Below are positions 9,731 to 19,646 of a stretch of 64,000 bases of DNA, piece after piece. Position 1 is the stretch's first letter. Every line of letters begins with the position of its first letter. A program made the position numbers and the translations under genes. The stretch spans positions 1,934-65,933 of the forward strand of contig JBAZMW010000002.1 in the NCBI GenBank assembly GCA_041649575.1, given 5' to 3'. Origin of the DNA: Patescibacteria group bacterium (lineage in GTDB: Bacteria; Patescibacteriota; Patescibacteriia; 2-01-FULL-39-33). The notes under the pieces are model-generated. The model was given only the letters and a program-made list of their open reading frames with translations. It was not told where the DNA came from and searched no databases.

Positions 9731-12055
9731 ATGAACCAATCTAAAATTTTGGTATTGATTCCCAAGGTCATTATCTGGCTGTGTCTGGCCGTTATTTTAT
9801 TCTCGCCCCTTTATGTCAGCAGCCATCTTTTTTTTCCTTTTATCGTCACCAAAACCCTGGTTTTTAATATTGCGGTAGAGGTAATGGTTTTGGCTTTTTT
9901 GTTTCTGGCCAGCATAAGTGGCGACTATAAAATCAGGATTAATTTGGCGGTTATCTTGGTCGCGGTTTATATTATCTTGTCTTTCATTTCTTCTTTGGCG
10001 GGCGATAATTTTTACCGCAGTTTCTGGAGCAATAACGAAAGAAGCGAAGGATTGCTCCTCTTACTACATCTCTTTTTGTTTTTGGTGGTGCTTTCCAGCT
10101 TCTTTAGAAAAATAAAGAGTTGGCTTTTGGTTTTTGACACTTTTTTCTTCGCCAGTTTTCTGGTCGCTTTGATTGCCCTGGGTCAGTATTTCAAGCTTGA
10201 TTGGCTTTTTGCTTCCGGTGACGGCCAGCGCCTGGCCGGCACTATTGGTAATGCCGGCTATATGGCCGGCTACTTGGTTTTTGCCGTTTTTCTGGGCTTA
10301 TTATTGGTTTTTAAGCGGAAAACCATTTATTTGAAAATTTATTATCTGATAGTAATGGCTTTGGAGGTCTTTATTATTTTCGGTACTGGTACAAGGGGTG
10401 GTATGCTGGCGCTGTTGCTTGGAGCTTTTTTGTTTGTCTTGTATTTACTTTTCTTTTATTTCAAAAATAAATATTTAAAATTGGCCGGAGTGGTGGTTAT
10501 ACTTTTGGCTTTGGGGCTGCCCTTGGTAGTGTTTGCCAATAAAGATTCACATTGGGTGAAAAGTAATTTTGCCCTGAACAGACTTTCCACTATTTCCGCC
10601 ACCACGGTCACCGCTCAATACCGGTTTATGACTTGGCAAGCGGCTTGGCAGGGCTTTAAGAAAAAATCCGTCCTTGGTTGGGGTCAGGAAAATTTTTATC
10701 AACCGTTTGACAAATACTTCAATCCTAAAATATTTCGTCATGGTGGTTCGGTGGTTTGGTATGATCGCGCTCACAATATAGTTTTTGACCGCTTGGTTAC
10801 CGGCGGCATCCTGGGCCTGCTGTCTTATTTGGCGCTTTTGTTCGTTCCTTGTTATTTTTTGTGGCGCCAGCGGGCGAAAAAGGAACCAGAGGCGGGCAAT
10901 GACCAAGAAAAAAAAGGCAAGAGATATTTCATCCAGGTGATCTTTTCTTTAATTGTTCTGGCTTATTTTATTCAGAATTTGTTTATTTTTGAGGCTTTGG
11001 CTACTTATATTCCTTTATTTCTGGTATTGAGCTTCATTGGCTTGTTTGGTTGGAGCTACGATTGGCAGCCGCTAGCCAGCCGCCGTGTCAAGTTAGCGTT
11101 TTTTATTTTTTGGCTGATTGTTTTTTTACCGATTCTATATTTTGTCAACCTCAAGCCGCTCAATGCCAACTTGACCCTGACCAAAGCTTTAAGCAGCCAG
11201 GATTTGAGTGTTAGCGAGAGAATTGATCTTTTCAAACAAGTTTTGTCGCAGCAGACCCCGGGTAATCAGGAATATCGACGGCAGCTGTTCAATCTTTTGG
11301 AGGCGTTGATTACCCAAAAGTTCCCGGATAAAAAAGTTATTTCCGACCTGGCCGATTTTACCGGCAGCGAATTAAACAAACAGATCGCCGAAAACCCCCA
11401 CAGTGTTTCCAATTATTTGCTACTGATGAGATTCAACAGTTCCATGTTCAGTCAGACCGGCAATCTCGATTATCTTAATAAAAACTTGGATCTTTTTGAT
11501 CAGGCCAAGGAGCTGTCGCCGGCCCGTCAGGTTATATATTTTGAAATCGGCTATTCCTACATAGCCATGGGTAATTATTTTAAACAAACTAGCCAGGGGG
11601 AGATGGCCCAGAAATATTATGATTTGGCCGTAGATAACTTTCGTTACGCCCTGGAGTTAAACGATACTAATTTCGAATCATACAGGCAGTTAATAAGCGC
11701 CTTAATTTATGCCGGTAAAAACCAAGACGTGCTAGATTTTATCGACCAAATGAATCAGAAGGAAAAAGAAAAAATAATGGATGATTACGATCACACCAGT
11801 TTTTTTACCAGCGTCATTAACATCGGCGTTTCAGTAAAAAATTACCAAATTGCAAGATCGATGGCCCAAAAACTGATTGAGATAGACCCCAAAAATCCTT
11901 TGTATTATGTCCAACTGGCTTTAGCTGAAGCCTATTTAGGCAATAACAATGAGGCTATAACAGTAGCTCAAAAAGTGGCGGAATTCGGAGACGATTACAA
12001 AAAACAGTCTGAAGATTTCATCCAAAAGGTAAAAGCGGGCGATTTTTCCAAGTAG
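9731..12055 (+). CDS. O-antigen-ligase-like (Wzy_C) polytopic membrane protein with a C-terminal TPR region; candidate O-oligosaccharyltransferase.
   Basis: GTGTRGGMLALLLG motif in a periplasmic loop, typical of the WaaL / PglL / WsaB Wzy_C family. About 12 TM helices. C-terminal ~330 aa soluble and TPR-like (YYDLAVDNFRYALELNDTNFESYRQLISALIYAG). Confidence 0.6.
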   Translation: MNQSKILVLIPKVIIWLCLAVILFSPLYVSSHLFFPFIVTKTLVFNIAVEVMVLAFLFLASISGDYKIRINLAVILVAVYIILSFISSLAGDNFYRSFWSNNERSEGLLLLLHLFLFLVVLSSFFRKIKSWLLVFDTFFFASFLVALIALGQYFKLDWLFASGDGQRLAGTIGNAGYMAGYLVFAVFLGLLLVFKRKTIYLKIYYLIVMALEVFIIFGTGTRGGMLALLLGAFLFVLYLLFFYFKNKYLKLAGVVVILLALGLPLVVFANKDSHWVKSNFALNRLSTISATTVTAQYRFMTWQAAWQGFKKKSVLGWGQENFYQPFDKYFNPKIFRHGGSVVWYDRAHNIVFDRLVTGGILGLLSYLALLFVPCYFLWRQRAKKEPEAGNDQEKKGKRYFIQVIFSLIVLAYFIQNLFIFEALATYIPLFLVLSFIGLFGWSYDWQPLASRRVKLAFFIFWLIVFLPILYFVNLKPLNANLTLTKALSSQDLSVSERIDLFKQVLSQQTPGNQEYRRQLFNLLEALITQKFPDKKVISDLADFTGSELNKQIAENPHSVSNYLLLMRFNSSMFSQTGNLDYLNKNLDLFDQAKELSPARQVIYFEIGYSYIAMGNYFKQTSQGEMAQKYYDLAVDNFRYALELNDTNFESYRQLISALIYAGKNQDVLDFIDQMNQKEKEKIMDDYDHTSFFTSVINIGVSVKNYQIARSMAQKLIEIDPKNPLYYVQLALAEAYLGNNNEAITVAQKVAEFGDDYKKQSEDFIQKVKAGDFSK

Positions 12056-12220: not shown

Positions 12221-12862
12221 ATGTTGTTTATGCACAAAAAAATCAATCTCTCCTCATCTTTGAGGAATGCTTTGATTGTTGTGGTGGCGTTGTTTTTTGT
12301 GGCCACGGCGGTTTACGCTACTACCATAATCGGGACTAACATAAGCACTGGCGGGACTTTAACGGTAAGCGGAGATTCCACTTTAACTTCGGCTACCACC
12401 AGCCATACTTTGTATGTCACAAGTTACGCCTCTTCCACCGGCGGCCTTTTCACTCAAGGTAATTTACACGCTGGCGGCACCGCTTCTTTTGACGGTAACT
12501 CCACTTTTGGCAAGTCGTCATCAATTGTCAATCTGTTCACCGGTACTCTACAGGCATCCACCACGGCTTTATTTACCGGGGCGAGTACTTTTTATAACAC
12601 TATAAACCTCAAAAATACCTCTGGCGGCACTTTTGATTTGACCACCAGCACCGCCACCACCACCAAAGGTATCTTTTCTCGCGATCATACCAACTCAACT
12701 TCAACCGTTAGTATTGGTGATGTTGGCTCTGCGGCTACCAAAGGTTGCTTAGAAATAACTGGTACCGACGGAGTATTTTATAGTTGTTTTATTGATAACA
12801 CTCACGGCACTGCCACCACCAGCGGCTACTACCTGTTGTGTCATCTGGGCCGGTGTATATAA
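12221..12862 (+). CDS. Small Thr/Gly/Ser-rich secreted or membrane-anchored protein (signal-anchor, then beta-repeat-like T/G-rich region, C-terminal CxxxxC).
   Basis: N-terminal hydrophobic helix LIVVVALFFVATAVYATTII. Periodic GGT/TST-rich repeats. Ends CHLGRCI. Composition matches the neighbouring surface proteins. Confidence 0.5.
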   Translation: MLFMHKKINLSSSLRNALIVVVALFFVATAVYATTIIGTNISTGGTLTVSGDSTLTSATTSHTLYVTSYASSTGGLFTQGNLHAGGTASFDGNSTFGKSSSIVNLFTGTLQASTTALFTGASTFYNTINLKNTSGGTFDLTTSTATTTKGIFSRDHTNSTSTVSIGDVGSAATKGCLEITGTDGVFYSCFIDNTHGTATTSGYYLLCHLGRCI

Positions 12863-12896: not shown

Positions 12897-14168
12897 ATGA
12901 AAATAAAAGCTAAAAAATTATTTTTTAGAGTTTTAATCTTTAGCGCTTGTTTGCTTTTTACTAGCACGGTTGTGTTGGCCGCCACCGATGATTTTACGGC
13001 TGATGGCGACATCTCGGTCAGTGGAGTAACTTTTGGTGACACCACGGCTGATATGATCATACTTAGCGGCTCAAAATCAGAAAGCTGGGAGTTTAACAGC
13101 GGTACCTTTACGGTTGCCAATCCCGACTCAGCCTTTAAGATTGGTTCGTCAGACAGTGCCGTCAAGGGACTTAAGGCGGTAAGAGGCACCAATGAATACT
13201 GCGAAAACAACACCACGCCTGGCACTAGCTACTTGACGCTCCCAACCACTGCCGGTACTTATACCATCACCCCTTTGTCGGGTACTTGCGTTGGCGGTTC
13301 ACCGTCATCAGTGCCTGCTCCTAGCGCCGGTTCGGGTTCTGGCGGTACAGGGGAAACCACTTTGGGCGGCACGTCGAATCTTGGCAATGTCAGCAGTAGC
13401 GGCAAAAATGTTTTTATGTATATTAATTCCACTGCCAATTTTACTACCACGGTCAGCGGTTCTGGTTCTAATAGTCACAGCGTGAAAGTCACCGGGCTCG
13501 ACTTGACCAATAAGCAGATCACCCTGACGTTTCAATCCGACCCGGTTACAGTGGAATTAAATCTAAAAGAGACCAAAGAAGTTGATTTAAACGGCGATGG
13601 TCTTAGTGATGTTAAGGTGACCTTTAATGATTTAATCATCAATAAGGCGGACTTAACGATCACCAATATTTTATCTACGTCAAAGGCATTTGCGCTGGGC
13701 TTGGTGGCCGGTGATTTAATCAAAATTGCCACCAATAGCGCCGTTTATTATATAGATTCTAATGGCAAACGACATTTATTTGTCAACGCGGCTACTTTTT
13801 GGACTTGGTATAGCGGTTCCTGGTCAAAAATAAAATATGGCACGGAAGCCAAAACCATCAAGATTATTTCTCAAGCTGATTTCGATCAGGTGCTACTGGG
13901 CGCCAATATTACAGCCAAGCCGGCAAATAAGTTAATTAAATTCAGAACCAGCAAGAGAGTTTATGTGGTTGATGAGGGCGCGATTTTGAGACAAGTGGTG
14001 TCGAGTTCCGGCGATGCCAGCGTGGCCAAAAAATTGTATGGCGCTGATTATGCCAAAAACGTGATCCTTGTTCCCGACGGTTTTGAAAGTGACTATACCC
14101 ACGGGGAAGTGCTGACCGAAACTTCAACAGCCCCAATCAAAACACTGGAGATAAACAAGTTGTTTTAA
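12897..14168 (+). CDS. Secreted surface protein with a C-terminal triple-repeat (YYxD-xxGKRHLF) module.
   Basis: Signal peptide LIFSACLLFTSTVVLAA. S/T/G-rich middle region. C-terminal AVYYIDSNGKRHLFVNAATFWTWYSG... module homologous to the N-terminus of the 1400-5236 protein and the C-terminus of the S8 protease. Confidence 0.7.
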   Translation: MKIKAKKLFFRVLIFSACLLFTSTVVLAATDDFTADGDISVSGVTFGDTTADMIILSGSKSESWEFNSGTFTVANPDSAFKIGSSDSAVKGLKAVRGTNEYCENNTTPGTSYLTLPTTAGTYTITPLSGTCVGGSPSSVPAPSAGSGSGGTGETTLGGTSNLGNVSSSGKNVFMYINSTANFTTTVSGSGSNSHSVKVTGLDLTNKQITLTFQSDPVTVELNLKETKEVDLNGDGLSDVKVTFNDLIINKADLTITNILSTSKAFALGLVAGDLIKIATNSAVYYIDSNGKRHLFVNAATFWTWYSGSWSKIKYGTEAKTIKIISQADFDQVLLGANITAKPANKLIKFRTSKRVYVVDEGAILRQVVSSSGDASVAKKLYGADYAKNVILVPDGFESDYTHGEVLTETSTAPIKTLEINKLF

Positions 14169-14230: not shown

Positions 14231-15379
14231 TTATTTTTTGTATTCGCTTAGAGTTTCCAGAATCATTTTTTGAAAAGAAAAATCATTTATTACAGCAAGC
14301 CTTGCTTGTTCGGCCATTTTTTTTGCCAAAGCGGGGTCAGCGATTACTTGTTTGATTTTTTCTGCTAACTTAGCGGAATTACCAGGCTCCGAGAGCAGGC
14401 CGGTCTTACCATCTTTTATTATCTCCGGGATACCTCCTATTCTGGTGGCGACAATAGGCAGCCCAGCGGCCATTGCTTCTAGAATGGAGTAAGGCAACCC
14501 TTCCTTTAAAGAAGAGCAAAGGTAAAGATCAAAGGCTTTTAGGTATTGGGCGGCATCACTCTGGCTGCCAGCTAAAATGAATTTATTTTCCAGCCCGGCT
14601 TCTTTGATTAAATTTTCCAATTCCGGCCTTAGTTCGCCATCGCCAATCACCACGGCCACGACAGGTATTGGATCGGTGTTTATTATCTTTATCGCTTCAA
14701 TGAAGTATTTTAAGCCTTTGTTGGCATAAAAATTGGCTATGGTGCCGACTATGATTCCTGTCAGGGGGAGGCCCAATTTTTTTCTAGCCTCTGGCTGGTC
14801 TAAAAATTTTATTTTGTCCAGGTTAATCCCATTAGGGATAACCGCTAATTTGTTTTGGGGAGCAATATTTTTTTTCAAAGCGGATTGTTTGTCTAATTGG
14901 GAAAGGCAAATGATTTTGTCTTTGAACCGGCTGGTGCTTTTTTCTAAGACGAGGTAGGCTAGTTTTATCAGAGGATTTAGCGATTCGTTGAATACCCAGC
15001 CATGGCAAGTGAAAATAACCCTGGCTTTATGTTTAGCCAGTTTAGCGGCCAGCGAACCAACCACACCGGCTTTACTGCTGTTTAGATGTATTATATCTGG
15101 CTTTTCTTTCTCTATTGTCTTTTTTATTTCCCAAACAGCCAGCAAATCTTTTAGAGGATTAATCTCTCGGACCAGATTTTTGAAAGTTATTGATTTCAGC
15201 CCTTGGTTTTTTGCCCTTTCCGCCAGTTCGCCCTTGTTTTTAGCGCCGCCGCTAATTATTATTTCTAGGTTGGGCTCATCTTTTAGCCCGCTTATCAGAT
15301 CATAAACATACTTTTGCGCACCGCCCCAAGAGAGTAAAGTGATTATATATAAAACCTTCGTTTTTTCAGAGTTGTTCAT
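14231..15379 (-). CDS. GT4-family glycosyltransferase (glycosyl transferase group 1).
   Basis: C-terminal EGLPYSILEAMAAGLPIVATRIGGIPEIIKDGKTGLL, the canonical GT4 EX7E region. N-terminal GT-B Rossmann half. Confidence 0.85.
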   Translation of the reverse strand: MNNSEKTKVLYIITLLSWGGAQKYVYDLISGLKDEPNLEIIISGGAKNKGELAERAKNQGLKSITFKNLVREINPLKDLLAVWEIKKTIEKEKPDIIHLNSSKAGVVGSLAAKLAKHKARVIFTCHGWVFNESLNPLIKLAYLVLEKSTSRFKDKIICLSQLDKQSALKKNIAPQNKLAVIPNGINLDKIKFLDQPEARKKLGLPLTGIIVGTIANFYANKGLKYFIEAIKIINTDPIPVVAVVIGDGELRPELENLIKEAGLENKFILAGSQSDAAQYLKAFDLYLCSSLKEGLPYSILEAMAAGLPIVATRIGGIPEIIKDGKTGLLSEPGNSAKLAEKIKQVIADPALAKKMAEQARLAVINDFSFQKMILETLSEYKK

Positions 15380-15451: not shown

Positions 15452-16306
15452 ATGGAAAATAAAAAAATTGGTTTTATCGGCCAGGGCTGGATTGGCAAAA
15501 ATTACGCCGATGATTTGGAAGCAAGAGGCTATGAGGTAGTCAGATATTCTCTGGAGGAGCCTTTTGTAAACAACAAGGAAAAAATAAAAGATTGTAATAT
15601 TGTTTTTATCGCCGTACCCACACCAACGACCTCAGCCGGCTTCGACGATGCTATCGTCAGAAGCGCTGTCAAATTGGTCGGTAGCGGCCAGTCGGCGGTT
15701 ATCAAGTCTACTATTTTACCAGGTACCACCCAATCGATTCAGGCAGAGAATCCCGGCATCTTCGTTTTTCATTCGCCGGAATTCCTCTCGGTCTCCACGG
15801 CCTATGAAGATTCACATCATCCACAGAGAAACATTGTCGGCATACCGGTGGATAACGAAGAATATCGTAACCGCGCTCGAGAAATTTTGTCAGTTCTGCC
15901 CACCGCCGATTTTTCCTTAATTACTGATGCCAGGGAGGCGGAGCTTTTTAAATATCTACGTAATTGTTTTTTTTATACCAAAGTCATCTATATGAATTTG
16001 CTGTACGATCTGGCGAAAAACCTCGGCTGTCGTTGGGAGACGCTTAGAGAAATTATGGCCAATGATCCCTGGATTGGCAGCATGCACATAGACCCGGTAC
16101 ATAAATCTGGCCGTGGCGCCGGCGGCGAATGTTTCATTAAAGATTTTGCCGCTTTCAGGAAATTTTATCAGGCAAAGGTCTCCGATAGCGTGGCCGATGA
16201 AATTTTCAAGAGTCTGGAAGACAAAAACCGTGAACTACTTATAAAAAGCAATAAGGATTTGAATTTGCTAAAAGGGGTCTACGGCGAAGAGACAACAAAA
16301 AAATAA
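15452..16306 (+). CDS. UDP-glucose/GDP-mannose dehydrogenase-family protein, short form (NAD-binding and central domains; lacks the C-terminal UDP-binding domain).
   Basis: GFIGQGWIG Rossmann motif. [34 protein letters not shown] matches [36 protein letters not shown] matches GFGGSCFPKD with the catalytic Cys. Only 284 aa, versus ~390-440 for canonical Ugd. Confidence 0.6.
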   Translation: [284 protein letters not shown]

Positions 16307-16329
16307 ATTTTTTTATAAAAATAATAACG

Positions 16330-16362
16330 CGTCGTCCCCGCTTGAGTCAGGGGGACGACGCG
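16330..16362. terminator. Terminator hairpin at the left edge of the GC-rich island.
   Basis: GCGTCGTCCCC-gcttgagtca-GGGGACGACGC perfect 11-bp stem, with an AT-rich run on the minus-strand 3' side. Confidence 0.6.
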
Positions 16363-16381
16363 GTCTGTACTTGGTGCGTGT

Positions 16382-16894
16382 CTAGACGTACTGCAGCAGA
16401 TCGAAGAACGGTCTCTGGTGTTCCATAAACGGCTTCGGAAGCTGGTCGACCCTAAACCATTTTCCCTCTGTTCTTCTTAGAGCTTCTTCCTCCGCCGTCG
16501 TATCGACTACCACGTAGAAGACACAGTGCATTTCGCCACCGTAGATGTGCTTCGAATAGACAACGCCGAGTAATTCCGCATCTTCCGCCAGGTCCGGACA
16601 CCCGATTCCTCTAGCTATCCGCCACAGGGTGTCTTTCACTAAATTATCCGATAGCTGCGCTATCTCGCCGGCGACATGCCATCGGGAAGCAAAGCGAAGG
16701 GCGTCTGACGGGTTCTGCACCAGAAAGACCTCCCTGACTTTTTGCCGCTGCCTTATCACCAGCAACTCTACGGCTGGCAGGCGCAGGAGCCGCGCTAAAG
16801 CGCGCAGCAGTTCCGGAGACAGAGTGCCCCAAACCCTCGCTAGCAGCCTTAAAACTACATCCTCTTTTTCTGAGCTCAATCCTTCCGTGGCCAT
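16382..16894 (-). CDS. Hypothetical protein encoded in a GC-rich (~55-58% GC) island; the C-terminal half has weak Nudix-fold resemblance but a degenerate Nudix box.
   Basis: ATG 16894 preceded by a perfect AAGGAGG 8 nt upstream. 171 aa, MATEGLSSEKED... The track ORF extends to 17053, but the RBS supports the internal start. Tail W-F-R-V-D-Q-L-P...F is Nudix-like, but REx2EE is replaced by WRIARG. Confidence 0.5.
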   Translation of the reverse strand: MATEGLSSEKEDVVLRLLARVWGTLSPELLRALARLLRLPAVELLVIRQRQKVREVFLVQNPSDALRFASRWHVAGEIAQLSDNLVKDTLWRIARGIGCPDLAEDAELLGVVYSKHIYGGEMHCVFYVVVDTTAEEEALRRTEGKWFRVDQLPKPFMEHQRPFFDLLQYV

Positions 16895-16967
16895 CTGTAA
16901 ACGCCTCCTTTTCCACTTTCTTATGTACAGGACTAAGACCTGCCACATCAGTAGCAGATTATTTATT

Positions 16968-16996
16968 ATAATATGACTTTCCGACGTTCCTGTCAA
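16968..16996 (-). promoter_or_regulatory. Candidate sigma70-like promoter for the island ORF (TTGACA-17-TATTAT on the minus strand).
   Basis: The -35 hexamer is formed by one arm of the 16986-17007 hairpin. It lies ~75 nt upstream of ATG 16894. Confidence 0.35.
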
Positions 16997-17009
16997 TGAC
17001 CAGGAACTT

Positions 17010-17038
17010 TTGACTTTTTTGCTGAAATATACGATAAT
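17010..17038 (+). promoter_or_regulatory. Candidate sigma70-like promoter TTGACT-17-GATAAT driving the ~34-kb glycosylation operon; preceded by hairpin GTTCCTG-tcaatgac-CAGGAAC (16986-17007).
   Basis: Exact 17-nt spacer. 57 nt upstream of ATG 17095. No other intergenic gap longer than 60 nt occurs until 51346. Confidence 0.45.
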
Positions 17039-17094
17039 AATAGGGATAATCATTGGTTTAGGTAGATAAAGAATGCCAAGGTAATTTTTTTAAT

Positions 17095-18237
17095 ATGAGC
17101 AAAATTCTCATTTTTTCCCTGGCCTATCATCCTTTTGTCGGCGGGGCTGAAGTGGCTATCAAGGAAATCACCGAGCGGCTGGCTGGCGAGTTTGAATTTG
17201 AAATGATCACTGCCAATTTGGACGGTCGGCAAAAAGAATTTGAAGAGAATTTTAACGGCCTTAGCAAGATTTATCGTCTTGGCAAAAGAAAATCAGATAA
17301 ATATTTTTTTCCTTGGTTGGCCTGCCGCAAAGCCGTTGAGCTGCACCGGCAGAGTAATTATCAGATGATTTGGGCGATGATGGCCAACCAGGCCGGCTGG
17401 GCCGCTCTGAAATTCAAGAAGAAATTCCCACAAGTTCCATATTTGCTCACTTTGCAGGAAGGGGATAGCGAATGGGATATCTGGCGGCGGACATTTTTGA
17501 TTCGGCCTATTTACAAAGCGATCTACAAAAAAGCTGATTATATTCAGGCTATTAGTAATTTTCTAGCCCAGCGGGCGAAGAATTTGGGAGCTAAGTGTCC
17601 GATAGAAGTGGTGCCGAATGGAATAAGTAACGTCATTGCGAGCGAAGCGAAGCAATCCCATATTTTTAAAAATAAAGATTTAAAGAGAGTTATAACAGTT
17701 TCCAGGTTGGTTAAAAAAAATGGCCTGGAGGATTTAGTAAAAGCCATGGAATTAGTTAATAAAGATTATGACAAGCCAGTCGTTCTAAAAATAATTGGCG
17801 ATGGAGAATTAAAATACAAATTAGAAAAAGCAGTTAATTATTCAAAAATAAAAGACAAAATTGCATTCTTGGGAAAAATAAATAATGAAAAAGTTTATGA
17901 ATATTTGGCTCAAGCCGATATTTTTGTTCGGCCGTCATTGTCTGAAGGGTTGGGTAACGCTTTTTTAGAGGCTATGGCTTGTGGCGTGCCGGTCATTGCC
18001 ACTCCGGTTGGCGGTATTCCCGATTTTTTGAAAGACGGCGAAACTGGCTGGTTTTGCGAGGTAAGAAACCCCAAAAGCATTGCCGAAAAAATAAAGTATA
18101 TTTTTGATGAGGAAAATAAGGAAGAAGTTGACAGGGTGGTCAAAAGTGCCAAAAAGATGGTAGAAGAAAATTATAATTGGGAAAAAATCAGTTTGGACCT
18201 GAAAAAAATTTTTAACCATTTAATAAACCAAGAATGA
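17095..18237 (+). CDS. GT4-family glycosyltransferase.
   Basis: EGLGNAFLEAMACGVPVIATPVGGIPDFLKDGETGWF. GT-B N-terminal half with the LAYHPFVGGAEV motif. Confidence 0.85.
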   Translation: MSKILIFSLAYHPFVGGAEVAIKEITERLAGEFEFEMITANLDGRQKEFEENFNGLSKIYRLGKRKSDKYFFPWLACRKAVELHRQSNYQMIWAMMANQAGWAALKFKKKFPQVPYLLTLQEGDSEWDIWRRTFLIRPIYKAIYKKADYIQAISNFLAQRAKNLGAKCPIEVVPNGISNVIASEAKQSHIFKNKDLKRVITVSRLVKKNGLEDLVKAMELVNKDYDKPVVLKIIGDGELKYKLEKAVNYSKIKDKIAFLGKINNEKVYEYLAQADIFVRPSLSEGLGNAFLEAMACGVPVIATPVGGIPDFLKDGETGWFCEVRNPKSIAEKIKYIFDEENKEEVDRVVKSAKKMVEENYNWEKISLDLKKIFNHLINQE

Positions 18238-19646
18238 GAAAAGAAGTTTTGCTAATTTGTCCTCATTCCGCGCTGGAAATTTTTAAGGAATCGAAAATTA
18301 GCATCGTTATTCCCCATATCCCGTATGTATCACTGGCCAGTTTGGCTGGCGCTCTCTTGGCTGGCGGGCACGGCGTTCATATCTTGGATTTAAGTATTTC
18401 TAAAAACCCCCTGGTTGATTTGGAACAAAAACTAAAAGTTTATCAGCCGGATTTTGTGGGCGTCACTTTTACCACCGGTTTGTGCAGCGAGGCGGCCGCT
18501 ATCGCCAAGAAAGTCAGGGAGCTTTGCGGCCTGGCAAAGTTGATTGCCGGCGGCGCGCACCCGTCGGTTTTTCCGGCCGAGCCGATTGAAAAATACGGTT
18601 TTGATTTTTCGGTTTTTGGCGAAGGCGAGCTTACTTTGTCGGAATTGGTTTCCGGCCGCGATGTTTCTGCCATAGACGGTCTGGCTTATCGCGGGGCCGA
18701 CGGCCAGGTTGTCATTAATTCTCCCCGCGCTCTCATTGGCGATTTGGACGATCTGCCCCCTCCGGCCTATCAGCTTTACAACGCCAAAAATTATCACAGC
18801 CCGAAAGTCGCTTCACGCCGGAGCCCGGTGGCCGCCATTGAGACCAGCCGTGGCTGTCCCTACAGCTGTATTTATTGCAACAAACACATTTTTCAGACAA
18901 AATTTCGTGCCAAGTCGCCCCGACGAGTGGTTGACGAGATGGAAATCCTCTTAAACCTTGGCTACAAGGAAATTCACGTTTGGGACGATTGCTTTTCCGC
19001 TGATTTAAATCACGCTAAAGGCGTTTGCGACGAGATTGTCAGGCGCGGCGTCAAAGTCAACTGGAATGTCTATAATGGCATCAGGGTTGACCGCGTGGAT
19101 GAGGAGTTGCTTTGCAAACTTATGGCCGCGGGCTGCTACCGTCTAAGTTTTGGCATTGAATCGGGCGACCAGGCGGTTTTGAACTTGTCTCAGAAGGGAA
19201 TCACTTTAGAACAAATCAAAAACGCTGTTCGTTTGGCCAACCAAGTCGGCATAGAAACCCTTGGATTTTTTATGGTCGGTTTGCCCGGCGAAACAAAGGA
19301 GACCTTTGAAAAGACCGTTGCCTTGGCCAAAGAATTAGATTTGGATTTGCCCAAAATCGCCATTGCCACGCCACTGCCTGGTACTAAATTTTTCGATGAT
19401 TGGCGGGAAAAGGGTTTGATTAAGTCCTATAATTGGCCCGATTACGTATTGCATACCAAAAAAAGAGTAGCCAGTCATCCCAATATCGGCGATGAAGAAA
19501 TGTTTAAATATTATAATTTATTTTACCGGCAGCTGTATTTACGCCCGAGTTTTATTGCGAAAAGATTTTGGCGAGGACTAAGAACCGGAGAGATATTTTT
19601 TGATATCTATTATTTTTTGAAGGTTTTTATTGGCTTTAAATGGTAA
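18234..19646 (+). CDS. Cobalamin (B12)-binding domain radical SAM protein (class B radical SAM).
   Basis: N-terminal Rossmann-like B12-binding domain (VLLICPHS...GVTFTT...IAGGAHPSVFP). Radical SAM cluster SRGCPYSCIYCNK (CX3CX2C). ATGA overlap with the upstream gene. Confidence 0.85.
   Translation: MRKEVLLICPHSALEIFKESKISIVIPHIPYVSLASLAGALLAGGHGVHILDLSISKNPLVDLEQKLKVYQPDFVGVTFTTGLCSEAAAIAKKVRELCGLAKLIAGGAHPSVFPAEPIEKYGFDFSVFGEGELTLSELVSGRDVSAIDGLAYRGADGQVVINSPRALIGDLDDLPPPAYQLYNAKNYHSPKVASRRSPVAAIETSRGCPYSCIYCNKHIFQTKFRAKSPRRVVDEMEILLNLGYKEIHVWDDCFSADLNHAKGVCDEIVRRGVKVNWNVYNGIRVDRVDEELLCKLMAAGCYRLSFGIESGDQAVLNLSQKGITLEQIKNAVRLANQVGIETLGFFMVGLPGETKETFEKTVALAKELDLDLPKIAIATPLPGTKFFDDWREKGLIKSYNWPDYVLHTKKRVASHPNIGDEEMFKYYNLFYRQLYLRPSFIAKRFWRGLRTGEIFFDIYYFLKVFIGFKW

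Follow-up and report, generated by a model that had tools for sequence, protein, structure and literature searches.

The closest described systems to the gene that we discuss here are Nudix proteins of two kinds. GDP-mannose mannosyl hydrolase (Gmm, WcaH or NudD; PDB 1RYA) is a small stand-alone Nudix protein from the colanic-acid cluster of E. coli. NrtR (Shewanella; 3GZ5/3GZ8) and AraR (Bacteroides; 5BS6/5DEQ) contain Nudix domains with degenerate boxes that have an effector role and bind ADP-ribose or arabinose (PMC2330246, PMC4666351). Loss of Nudix-box residues is also found in GDP-sugar glycosyl hydrolases, and non-enzymatic Nudix proteins exist (PMC5389931). The gene analysed here lies on the minus strand of a 64,000-nucleotide stretch (the window) of contig JBAZMW010000002.1 (positions 1,934 to 65,933), from the Patescibacteria group bacterium assembly GCA_041649575.1. 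It encodes a predicted Nudix-fold protein within an island rich in guanine plus cytosine (GC), which the preliminary description of this DNA had taken for a horizontally acquired cassette. We propose that the gene has long resided at its locus but is dispensable: some lineages have kept it, others have lost it, and in one it has become a pseudogene. We put the probability of this explanation as a whole at about 60%.

The open reading frame (ORF) in the island is a true gene, and its product is predicted to be a Nudix-fold protein of an uncharacterised subfamily. An exhaustive HMMER search of 1.8 billion representative proteins found 66 that match the window protein at E <= 1e-3 over its full length of about 170 aa. 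Nearly all of these relatives are themselves about 170 aa long and match end to end, and Pfam NUDIX (PF00293) is matched by 30 of the 52 relatives that were aligned. The window protein alone gave nothing above threshold in Pfam or NCBIfam, only itself in a word-indexed protein search, and no match in PDB with phmmer. A profile of the family did match solved structures in PDB: NrtR from Shewanella (1.5e-9), AraR from Bacteroides (9e-9) and the E. coli GDP-mannose mannosyl hydrolase (1.6e-4). The AlphaFold model built with the family alignment reached a mean predicted local distance difference test score (pLDDT) of 93.9, against only 47 in a single-sequence run. In this model, two N-terminal helices (residues 8-20 and 27-34) precede a Nudix fold that begins near residue 39 and extends to the C-terminus. 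The top 50 listed Foldseek matches of this model in PDB are all Nudix-fold proteins, with 213 matches at E <= 1e-3; the best are AraR and NrtR (E 1.9e-8, query TM-score (TMq) up to 0.64), and the mannosyl hydrolase has a TMq of 0.58-0.61. The Nudix-like fold that had been suspected in the C-terminal half is therefore correct as a fold, but it spans three quarters of the protein. We think that the gene is best filed under a new, uncharacterised subfamily inside the Nudix superfamily, as an ordinary kind of gene with an unusual composition. There is no second copy of the family elsewhere in the window. Protein P0079 and similar low-coverage matches have an unrelated gene context and were excluded from the family. 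Among the PADLOC defence models only DrmMI matched the window protein, at 18 bits; we judged this match spurious because four relatives lacked it.

Of the described systems, an accessory Nudix protein encoded within a cluster, such as Gmm/WcaH, would be the nearest to the window protein in the way it works. Both are small stand-alone Nudix proteins in a polysaccharide or nucleotide-sugar cluster. The family profile aligns with Gmm from the N-terminal helix on (hhalign probability 91%), in addition to the structural match given above, and the family has the same reduced Nudix box, R-x4-E-L-G, with one Glu. However, the identity is only about 18%, and the family has an extra N-terminal helix and the invariant motifs W-H-x-P-G and R-G. 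The window protein also has Gly at the equivalent of E70 of Gmm and Asn at the equivalent of R37, whereas its relatives keep these residues. NCBIfam PRK15434 has a cut-off of 146 bits; the window protein did not match it and the best relative reached 20.9 bits. Judged by these comparisons, the protein is not a member of the Gmm family. NrtR and AraR are the best profile and structure matches to the family, but they carry a C-terminal winged-helix domain. The window protein ends at residue 170, in the last Nudix helix, with no helix-turn-helix in Pfam, and its gene context is glycan biosynthesis and not NAD or arabinose genes.

The evidence that the gene is an old resident comes from related genomes. 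The nearest relatives of the whole search are encoded on four contigs, L002 (protein P0002), L015 (P0003), L006 (P0004) and L022 (P0005). Together with the window protein, these top matches of the exhaustive search form one clade in a neighbour-joining tree, in which the window protein is sister to that of L022. All four genes appear to sit in the same slot as the window gene, between two genes for GT4 glycosyltransferases that we call GT4a and GT4b (Table 1). This placement was confirmed for L006, L015 and L022 and inferred for L002, which is a short contig. On L006, a contig of a Patescibacteria metagenome-assembled genome, the order is that of the window: a radical SAM gene (66% identical), GT4a (66%), the Nudix gene (36%), GT4b (45%), and the counterparts of the window ORFs at 12897-14168 (50%) and 12221-12862 (55%). 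The Nudix gene of L006 is divergent from GT4a. So is that of L015, which faces the N-terminal part of a GT4a gene 67% identical to the window's. The homologue of L022 is the closest relative of the window protein (49% over 160 aa), and it too is divergent from a GT4a gene, 59% identical. L002 shares the promoter block of GT4a, and its Nudix gene is convergent with a nucleotide-sugar dehydrogenase gene, as in the window. That dehydrogenase gene is a C-terminal fragment of the type found on contig L008.

Other loci lack the Nudix gene, yet their GT4a genes are just as similar to the window's. On L007 and L009, GT4b is followed by an epimerase gene and a short dehydrogenase-like gene, and GT4a begins 35 bp further on. 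On L008, a full-length nucleotide-sugar dehydrogenase of 449 aa is encoded between the GT4 genes. The slot can hold a short dehydrogenase and a Nudix gene (window), only a Nudix gene (L006), an epimerase and a short dehydrogenase (L007/L009), or a full-length dehydrogenase (L008). The L022 copy (1159-1626) has ATA where the homologous start codon would be, and an in-frame TGA corresponds to window residue D101; its GT4a gene is uninterrupted. This copy is probably a pseudogene. Because the gene is absent from L007/L009 and L008 and pseudogene-like in L022, we consider it dispensable and in the course of being lost in some lineages.

We read the island as one complete transcription unit with a single gene on the minus strand, made up of a predicted promoter, a 5' stem-loop, a strong Shine-Dalgarno sequence, a 170-aa ORF and a predicted terminator (Table 1). 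The single real gene had been recognised in the preliminary description, although as 171 aa, a count that includes the stop codon. A longer candidate, a 223-aa ORF starting at 17053, was rejected since it would extend across the promoter and since the family's N-termini line up with the ATG at 16894. The Shine-Dalgarno sequence is present as had been noticed, with a spacing of 9 nt and not 8 nt. It is indeed exceptional in the window, as even a 4-mer core within 22 nt upstream was found for only 2 of the 50 other ORFs. The homologues have their own Shine-Dalgarno motifs, three of which are strong: AGGAGG (L022), GGGAGG (L015), AGGAG (L002) and AAGGA (L006).

Table 1. Positions of the Nudix gene, its expression signals and the neighbouring genes in the window
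Feature	Position	Strand	Evidence or remark
Coding sequence, 170 aa + stop	16382..16894	-	Predicted Nudix fold after two N-terminal helices; R61, E96, R118 replaced by N, G, Y
Shine-Dalgarno sequence AAGGAGG	16904..16910	-	9 nt upstream of ATG
Stem-loop of 9 bp at predicted mRNA 5' end	16938..16959	-	Fold; pairing kept in L022 and L015
Sigma-70-type promoter of Nudix gene: TTGACA, 17 nt, TATTAT	16968..16996	-	11/12 consensus matches
Predicted intrinsic terminator of Nudix gene	16315..16362	-	12-bp G+C-rich stem 16328-16339/16351-16362, then UUAUUAUUUUUAU
Inverted repeat GTTCCTG-N8-CAGGAAC around -35 box	16986..17007	.	Lineage-specific, probably incidental
Divergent promoter block of GT4/radical-SAM operon: TTGACT, 17 nt, GATAAT and conserved downstream bases	17010..17056	+	Consensus scan, alignment
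GT4 glycosyltransferase (GT4a), divergent synteny anchor	17095..18237	+	Pfam; 66% identical to L006, 64% L007, 68% L008, 67% L015 (N-terminal part), 59% L022
Short UDP-glucose/GDP-mannose dehydrogenase-like gene, convergent with Nudix gene, second slot occupant	15452..16306	+	Pfam N-terminal and central domains only; 57% identical to L007
GT4 glycosyltransferase (GT4b), other conserved slot border	14231..15379	-	Pfam; 45-58% identical to L006, L007 and L008 orthologues

Two hairpins had been described as the borders of the island. The first has a perfect stem as reported, but of 12 bp and not 11 bp, with a folding free energy of -28 to -29 kcal/mol and z-scores of -4.9 and -6.5 on the two strands. 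It starts 19 nt past the Nudix stop codon, and a U-run follows it on the minus strand only. Because the U-run lies on the minus strand, this hairpin is the predicted terminator of the Nudix gene and not of the dehydrogenase-like gene, to which it had been assigned. With a loop longer than 8 nt, it was missed by the consensus scan. The L006 and L002 homologues have their own hairpin plus T-run at the equivalent position. The second hairpin exists too, as a weak one with a 7-bp stem and an 8-nt loop (z -1.9 and -2.9). It brackets the TTGACA -35 box of the Nudix promoter, is degenerate in L015 and L022, and is deleted in L006. Given this overlap with the -35 box of the gene itself and the lack of conservation, we regard it as incidental, neither a terminator nor a cassette boundary. 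With up to 3 mismatches allowed, the repeat matches four sites in the window where 1.6 are expected, and a single site is an exact match. A role as an operator was rejected on account of this single exact copy and the lack of conservation among relatives. A role as a plus-strand terminator was rejected as well, as no plus-strand gene lies upstream beyond the first hairpin and the T-run that had been noted belongs to the GT4a promoter (17010-17038), as its -35 box and spacer.

The control region between the Nudix gene and GT4a is conserved. It aligns across lineages with back-to-back TTGACA/TATAAT-type promoters, and the -35 and -10 boxes of the Nudix promoter are kept in L015, L022, L006 and L002. 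The GT4a promoter block has 42 of 44 bases in common between the window and L015, and it is also conserved in the other three. Across lineages the block is near-identical, spacer and bases past the -10 box included, against an identity of no more than about 60-67% between the encoded proteins, and so it may be a strongly constrained regulatory site. The 5' stem-loop of the Nudix gene has counterparts in L022 (~1089-1110) and L015 (~353-374); all 27 of the 27 cells are paired, with three compensatory pairs and two one-sided changes, against at most 52% pairing in slid controls. It is absent from L002 and L006. With three sequences only, its conservation is suggestive. Stabiliser hairpins at the 5' end of mRNAs are known, and by analogy the stem-loop may protect the transcript.

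The composition of the gene is what made it look foreign. The GC content of 16363-16930 is 53.7%, with peaks of 57% in 200-bp windows inside the island. The jump that had been reported is real, but it rises from a window mean of 41.0% and not from about 36%; only the flanking intergenic DNA is lower, at 28-34%. The island ranks in the top 0.8% of 568-bp windows in the stretch. It is not the sole GC-rich region, since 1981-5029 and 18261-19199 are comparable. The Nudix gene itself (GC 54.6%) is the most extreme of the 50 window ORFs in GC (z = 4.4), and its GC at third codon positions (GC3) is 0.62 (z = 3.5). Its synonymous-codon likelihood under the window's own usage has a z-score of -5.5, and none of 270 length-matched chunks of other genes equals it in GC or codon deviation. 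Arg makes up 9.4% of the protein against 3.9% in other window genes, and Lys 3.5% against 8.2%. The further open frames of 115 and 100 codons, described earlier as a by-product of high GC, are both present. With a GC z-score of 4.4 and a codon z-score of -5.5, the gene is atypical for its host, as is expected of an acquired island.

This atypical composition recurs among the relatives. The gene has 53.3% GC in L015 against 40.6% in the rest of the contig (GC3 0.60), 51% against 40% in L022 (GC3 0.54), 47% against 34% in L002 (GC3 0.51) and 43% against 41% in L006 (GC3 0.39). A GC-rich, Arg-rich and Shine-Dalgarno-led character is common, in varying degree, to four of the five clade genes and is no sign of recent import. 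The composition is atypical in GC, codons and Arg, as the preliminary description held. However, foreign origin does not follow from it, since two of the syntenic relatives (L015 and L022) are GC-rich also.

A recent foreign cassette, specific to this genome and placed between a terminator and the operon promoter, would account for the atypical GC, codon usage and amino acids and for a perfect Shine-Dalgarno sequence in a window nearly devoid of them. It would also agree with the absence of the gene from L007/L009 and L008, and with the L007 dehydrogenase-like gene that ends 35 bp before GT4a. We nevertheless find it very unlikely. Four other lineages have syntenic homologues with the same promoter architecture (by inference in L002), and in two of these lineages the gene exceeds its contig in GC by 11-13 points. 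The preliminary description had proposed that homologous loci be checked for the segment; relatives carry it with similar composition, so the acquisition reading fails. Absence from the syntenic locus, as is expected for an island, was seen only in L007/L009 and L008. These loci make the slot a variable one, in which the gene was gained and lost or its alleles were exchanged, but the evidence speaks against a recent insertion specific to this genome. The repeat search found no flanking terminal inverted or direct repeats and no target-site duplications beyond chance-level short matches. The segment contains no integrase or transposase, the Nudix ORF being its only gene, and the window has no tRNA or tmRNA gene that would mark an integration site. 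Finally, the hairpins are the predicted terminator of the gene itself and a repeat around its own -35 box.

It is hardly credible that the island encodes no protein and is instead a structured RNA, or that it is an artefact of assembly. Islands of high GC in AT-rich genomes often turn out to be structured RNAs, and the fold of the Nudix transcript has a z-score of -2.65. However, this signal comes mostly from the terminator, and the protein has full-length homologues and a confident predicted fold. Rfam gave no matches in the whole window at gathering thresholds; at permissive E-values, 16200-17150 gave only chance-level sub-threshold matches, on the hairpin. As for an artefact, Logan assembly contig L001 (SRR8542065, 2174 bp) is 100% identical over both island junctions. 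This argues against a chimeric assembly, although L001 may derive from the same reads.

The window copy differs from its family at residues that are otherwise nearly invariant. The Nudix box of the family is reduced to R-x4-E-L-G, which keeps the R and one E. In the window protein it reads W-R-I-A-R-G-I-G and has no Glu, so that the degenerate REx2EE box of the preliminary description is borne out; the canonical box GX5EX7REUXEEXGU with its REx2EE glutamates is not matched. Among the other 51 aligned relatives, E96 and R92 are conserved in 100%, R61 in 98% and R118 in 94%. The hhalign alignment (probability 91%) pairs R61, R92 and E96 of the family with R37, R65 and E70 of the mannosyl hydrolase. 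The window protein carries the changes R61N, E96G and R118Y, and also A65 where the consensus has D, A75 where it has P and Q80 where it has R. It is the most deviant member of the family, off consensus at 8 of 24 conserved columns, and it is 8-11 identity points further from the L002, L006 and L015 proteins than its sister L022 is. The sequence comparison indicates that it lies on a long, accelerated branch. Because the presumed sole metal-binding Glu and two conserved Arg are replaced, and because the branch is long, the window copy is probably catalytically inactive. It could be a pseudoenzyme that binds a ligand, a reading favoured by its intact ORF and good expression signals, or a gene whose constraint has relaxed, as the probable pseudogene in the sister lineage L022 suggests.

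The genes around other family members point to a role in nucleotide-sugar metabolism. On contigs L016-L018 a family gene heads an rml-like operon with genes for an NTP_transferase, a dTDP-sugar isomerase, a dehydratase/epimerase, GT2, DegT and an RmlD-like protein. On L003 a family gene adjoins genes for a dTDP-sugar isomerase, a GDP-mannose-dehydratase-like protein and an NTP_transferase. L005 has two paralogous family genes (8001-8615 and 9600-10136), one gene apart in a large glycan cluster of a genome with about 34% GC. We infer that intact family members bind, and probably hydrolyse, a nucleoside diphosphate sugar (NDP-sugar).

Based on these observations, we propose a model for the family. 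The protein would bind an NDP-sugar that is made or used by the products of neighbouring genes. Intact members may hydrolyse it by means of their reduced Nudix box, as GDP-mannose mannosyl hydrolase does, and this hydrolysis may trim or proofread the pool of precursors on which the adjacent glycosyltransferases draw. One clade of Patescibacteria-like genomes has the gene at a constant position, divergent from an orthologous GT4/radical-SAM operon and in a slot otherwise occupied by nucleotide-sugar dehydrogenase or epimerase genes. The window copy may then be a ligand-binding pseudoenzyme or a gene that is drifting towards loss.

Several points weigh against our explanation. The function of the family is predicted from sequence, gene context and a structural model. 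The closest solved structures, NrtR and AraR, are non-catalytic sensor domains, so the intact members are perhaps no enzymes. The roles that we give to residues are those we assume for the mannosyl hydrolase, in which we take E70 to be the Mg-binding Glu and presume roles for R37 and R65. The intact ORF and good expression signals of the window copy speak against plain decay. The Nudix tree is a neighbour-joining tree without support values, and only a minority of the related contigs have a taxonomic assignment. Last, GC3 values of 0.60-0.62 have persisted in genomes of about 40% GC among lineages whose proteins are only 36-51% identical, which simple vertical descent leaves unexplained.

The last of these points bears on a rival explanation. 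It is possible that the gene is resident but that GC-rich alleles, as in the window, L015 and L022, were brought in as replacements from relatives of higher GC content, with the conserved flanks as sites of homologous recombination, much as O-antigen and capsule loci shuffle their central genes. Such loci hold variable, compositionally atypical genes between conserved flanks. The locus described here resembles them in its conserved flanks, its variable slot and its GC-deviating gene. It is unlike them in that a single GC-rich gene sits in an AT-rich genome and its position and promoter are kept across lineages. Allele exchange fits the status of the Nudix gene as an outlier in GC and codon usage, with GC3 values of 0.62, 0.60 and 0.54 against 0.38-0.42 in neighbouring genes. 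It also fits the different gene content of the slot in relatives, and the lower identities of the Nudix proteins (34-51%) compared with their neighbours (45-68%). The highly conserved promoter block and GT4 genes could serve as recombination arms. It is the best available account of a GC3 of about 0.6 persisting at such divergence. However, the five slot proteins form a single clade and are mutual best matches among the 1.8 billion representatives, and no GC-rich donor lineage with a closer homologue was found. In addition, the family as a whole has GC at first codon positions of 0.53-0.64, so part of the excess is due to amino-acid composition. We therefore treat exchange as a tentative and, on balance, unlikely addition to the history of the gene.

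A second rival concerns what the protein does. It may be a non-catalytic sensor of a sugar or NDP-sugar that regulates the divergent glycan operon, similar to NrtR and AraR without the winged helix. Such a sensor would act through its two N-terminal helices or a partner protein. The nearest solved relatives, in sequence as in fold, are the effector domains of NrtR and AraR. The Nudix box is reduced family-wide, and the gene is divergent from the operon across a tightly conserved shared control region, in which, in the window, an inverted repeat overlaps the promoters. However, no DNA-binding domain was detected in Pfam or in the model, and the inverted repeat is not conserved. Distant family members are co-directional within, or at the head of, biosynthetic operons, as enzymes usually are, and the near-invariant R, E and R suggest a chemistry beyond binding. 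We consider such a sensor quite unlikely, and prefer to think of intact members as probable NDP-sugar hydrolases.

An extension of the sensor idea is a long shot. The clade might consist of stand-alone Nudix 'pseudo-hydrolases' of a new class, which would sense nucleotide sugars and adjust the divergent glycan operon. Their expression package (a GC-rich coding sequence, a strong Shine-Dalgarno sequence and a 5'-terminal stem-loop, in genomes that barely use Shine-Dalgarno sequences) would then have been kept by selection and not inherited from a donor. If so, Patescibacteria would seem to have a gene-specific way to translate an mRNA or to stabilise it.

If the gene is a long-standing member of its locus, then a GC jump, odd codons, a lone Shine-Dalgarno sequence and hairpins can together give a textbook-looking foreign island without recent transfer. 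Since a long-resident gene can look foreign, composition alone would mislead calls of horizontal transfer in Patescibacteria. The subfamily, which repeatedly accompanies nucleotide-sugar and glycan clusters, could also be assigned at low cost, by biochemistry, to the NDP-sugar hydrolases or the sensors, and the window copy provides a natural variant without the presumed catalytic residues. The high GC3 of one gene across AT-rich relatives is a small remaining puzzle.

The neighbours of the Nudix gene have features of their own. The product of the short dehydrogenase-like gene (284 aa) is without the C-terminal UDP-binding domain. As its L007 counterpart (314 aa) is short in the same way, we regard the protein as a conserved truncated type and not as a fragment. 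On the other side, a gene for a B12-binding radical-SAM protein (18234-19646) overlaps the end of GT4a by 4 nt, and it adjoins GT4a also in L006 (66%). This pairing hints at a glycan modification step that may be coupled to GT4a. Most genes of the window run in the same direction and either overlap or follow each other closely. This arrangement suggests a very long operon array that is related to glycosylation. The other high-GC region of the window is a pair of genes near its start: a GC-rich ORF with a DUF5667 domain (5-1153; GC3 0.59) precedes an ORF of 1291 aa (1361-5236) that has 50% GC, a GC content at second codon positions of 0.48 and no Pfam match.

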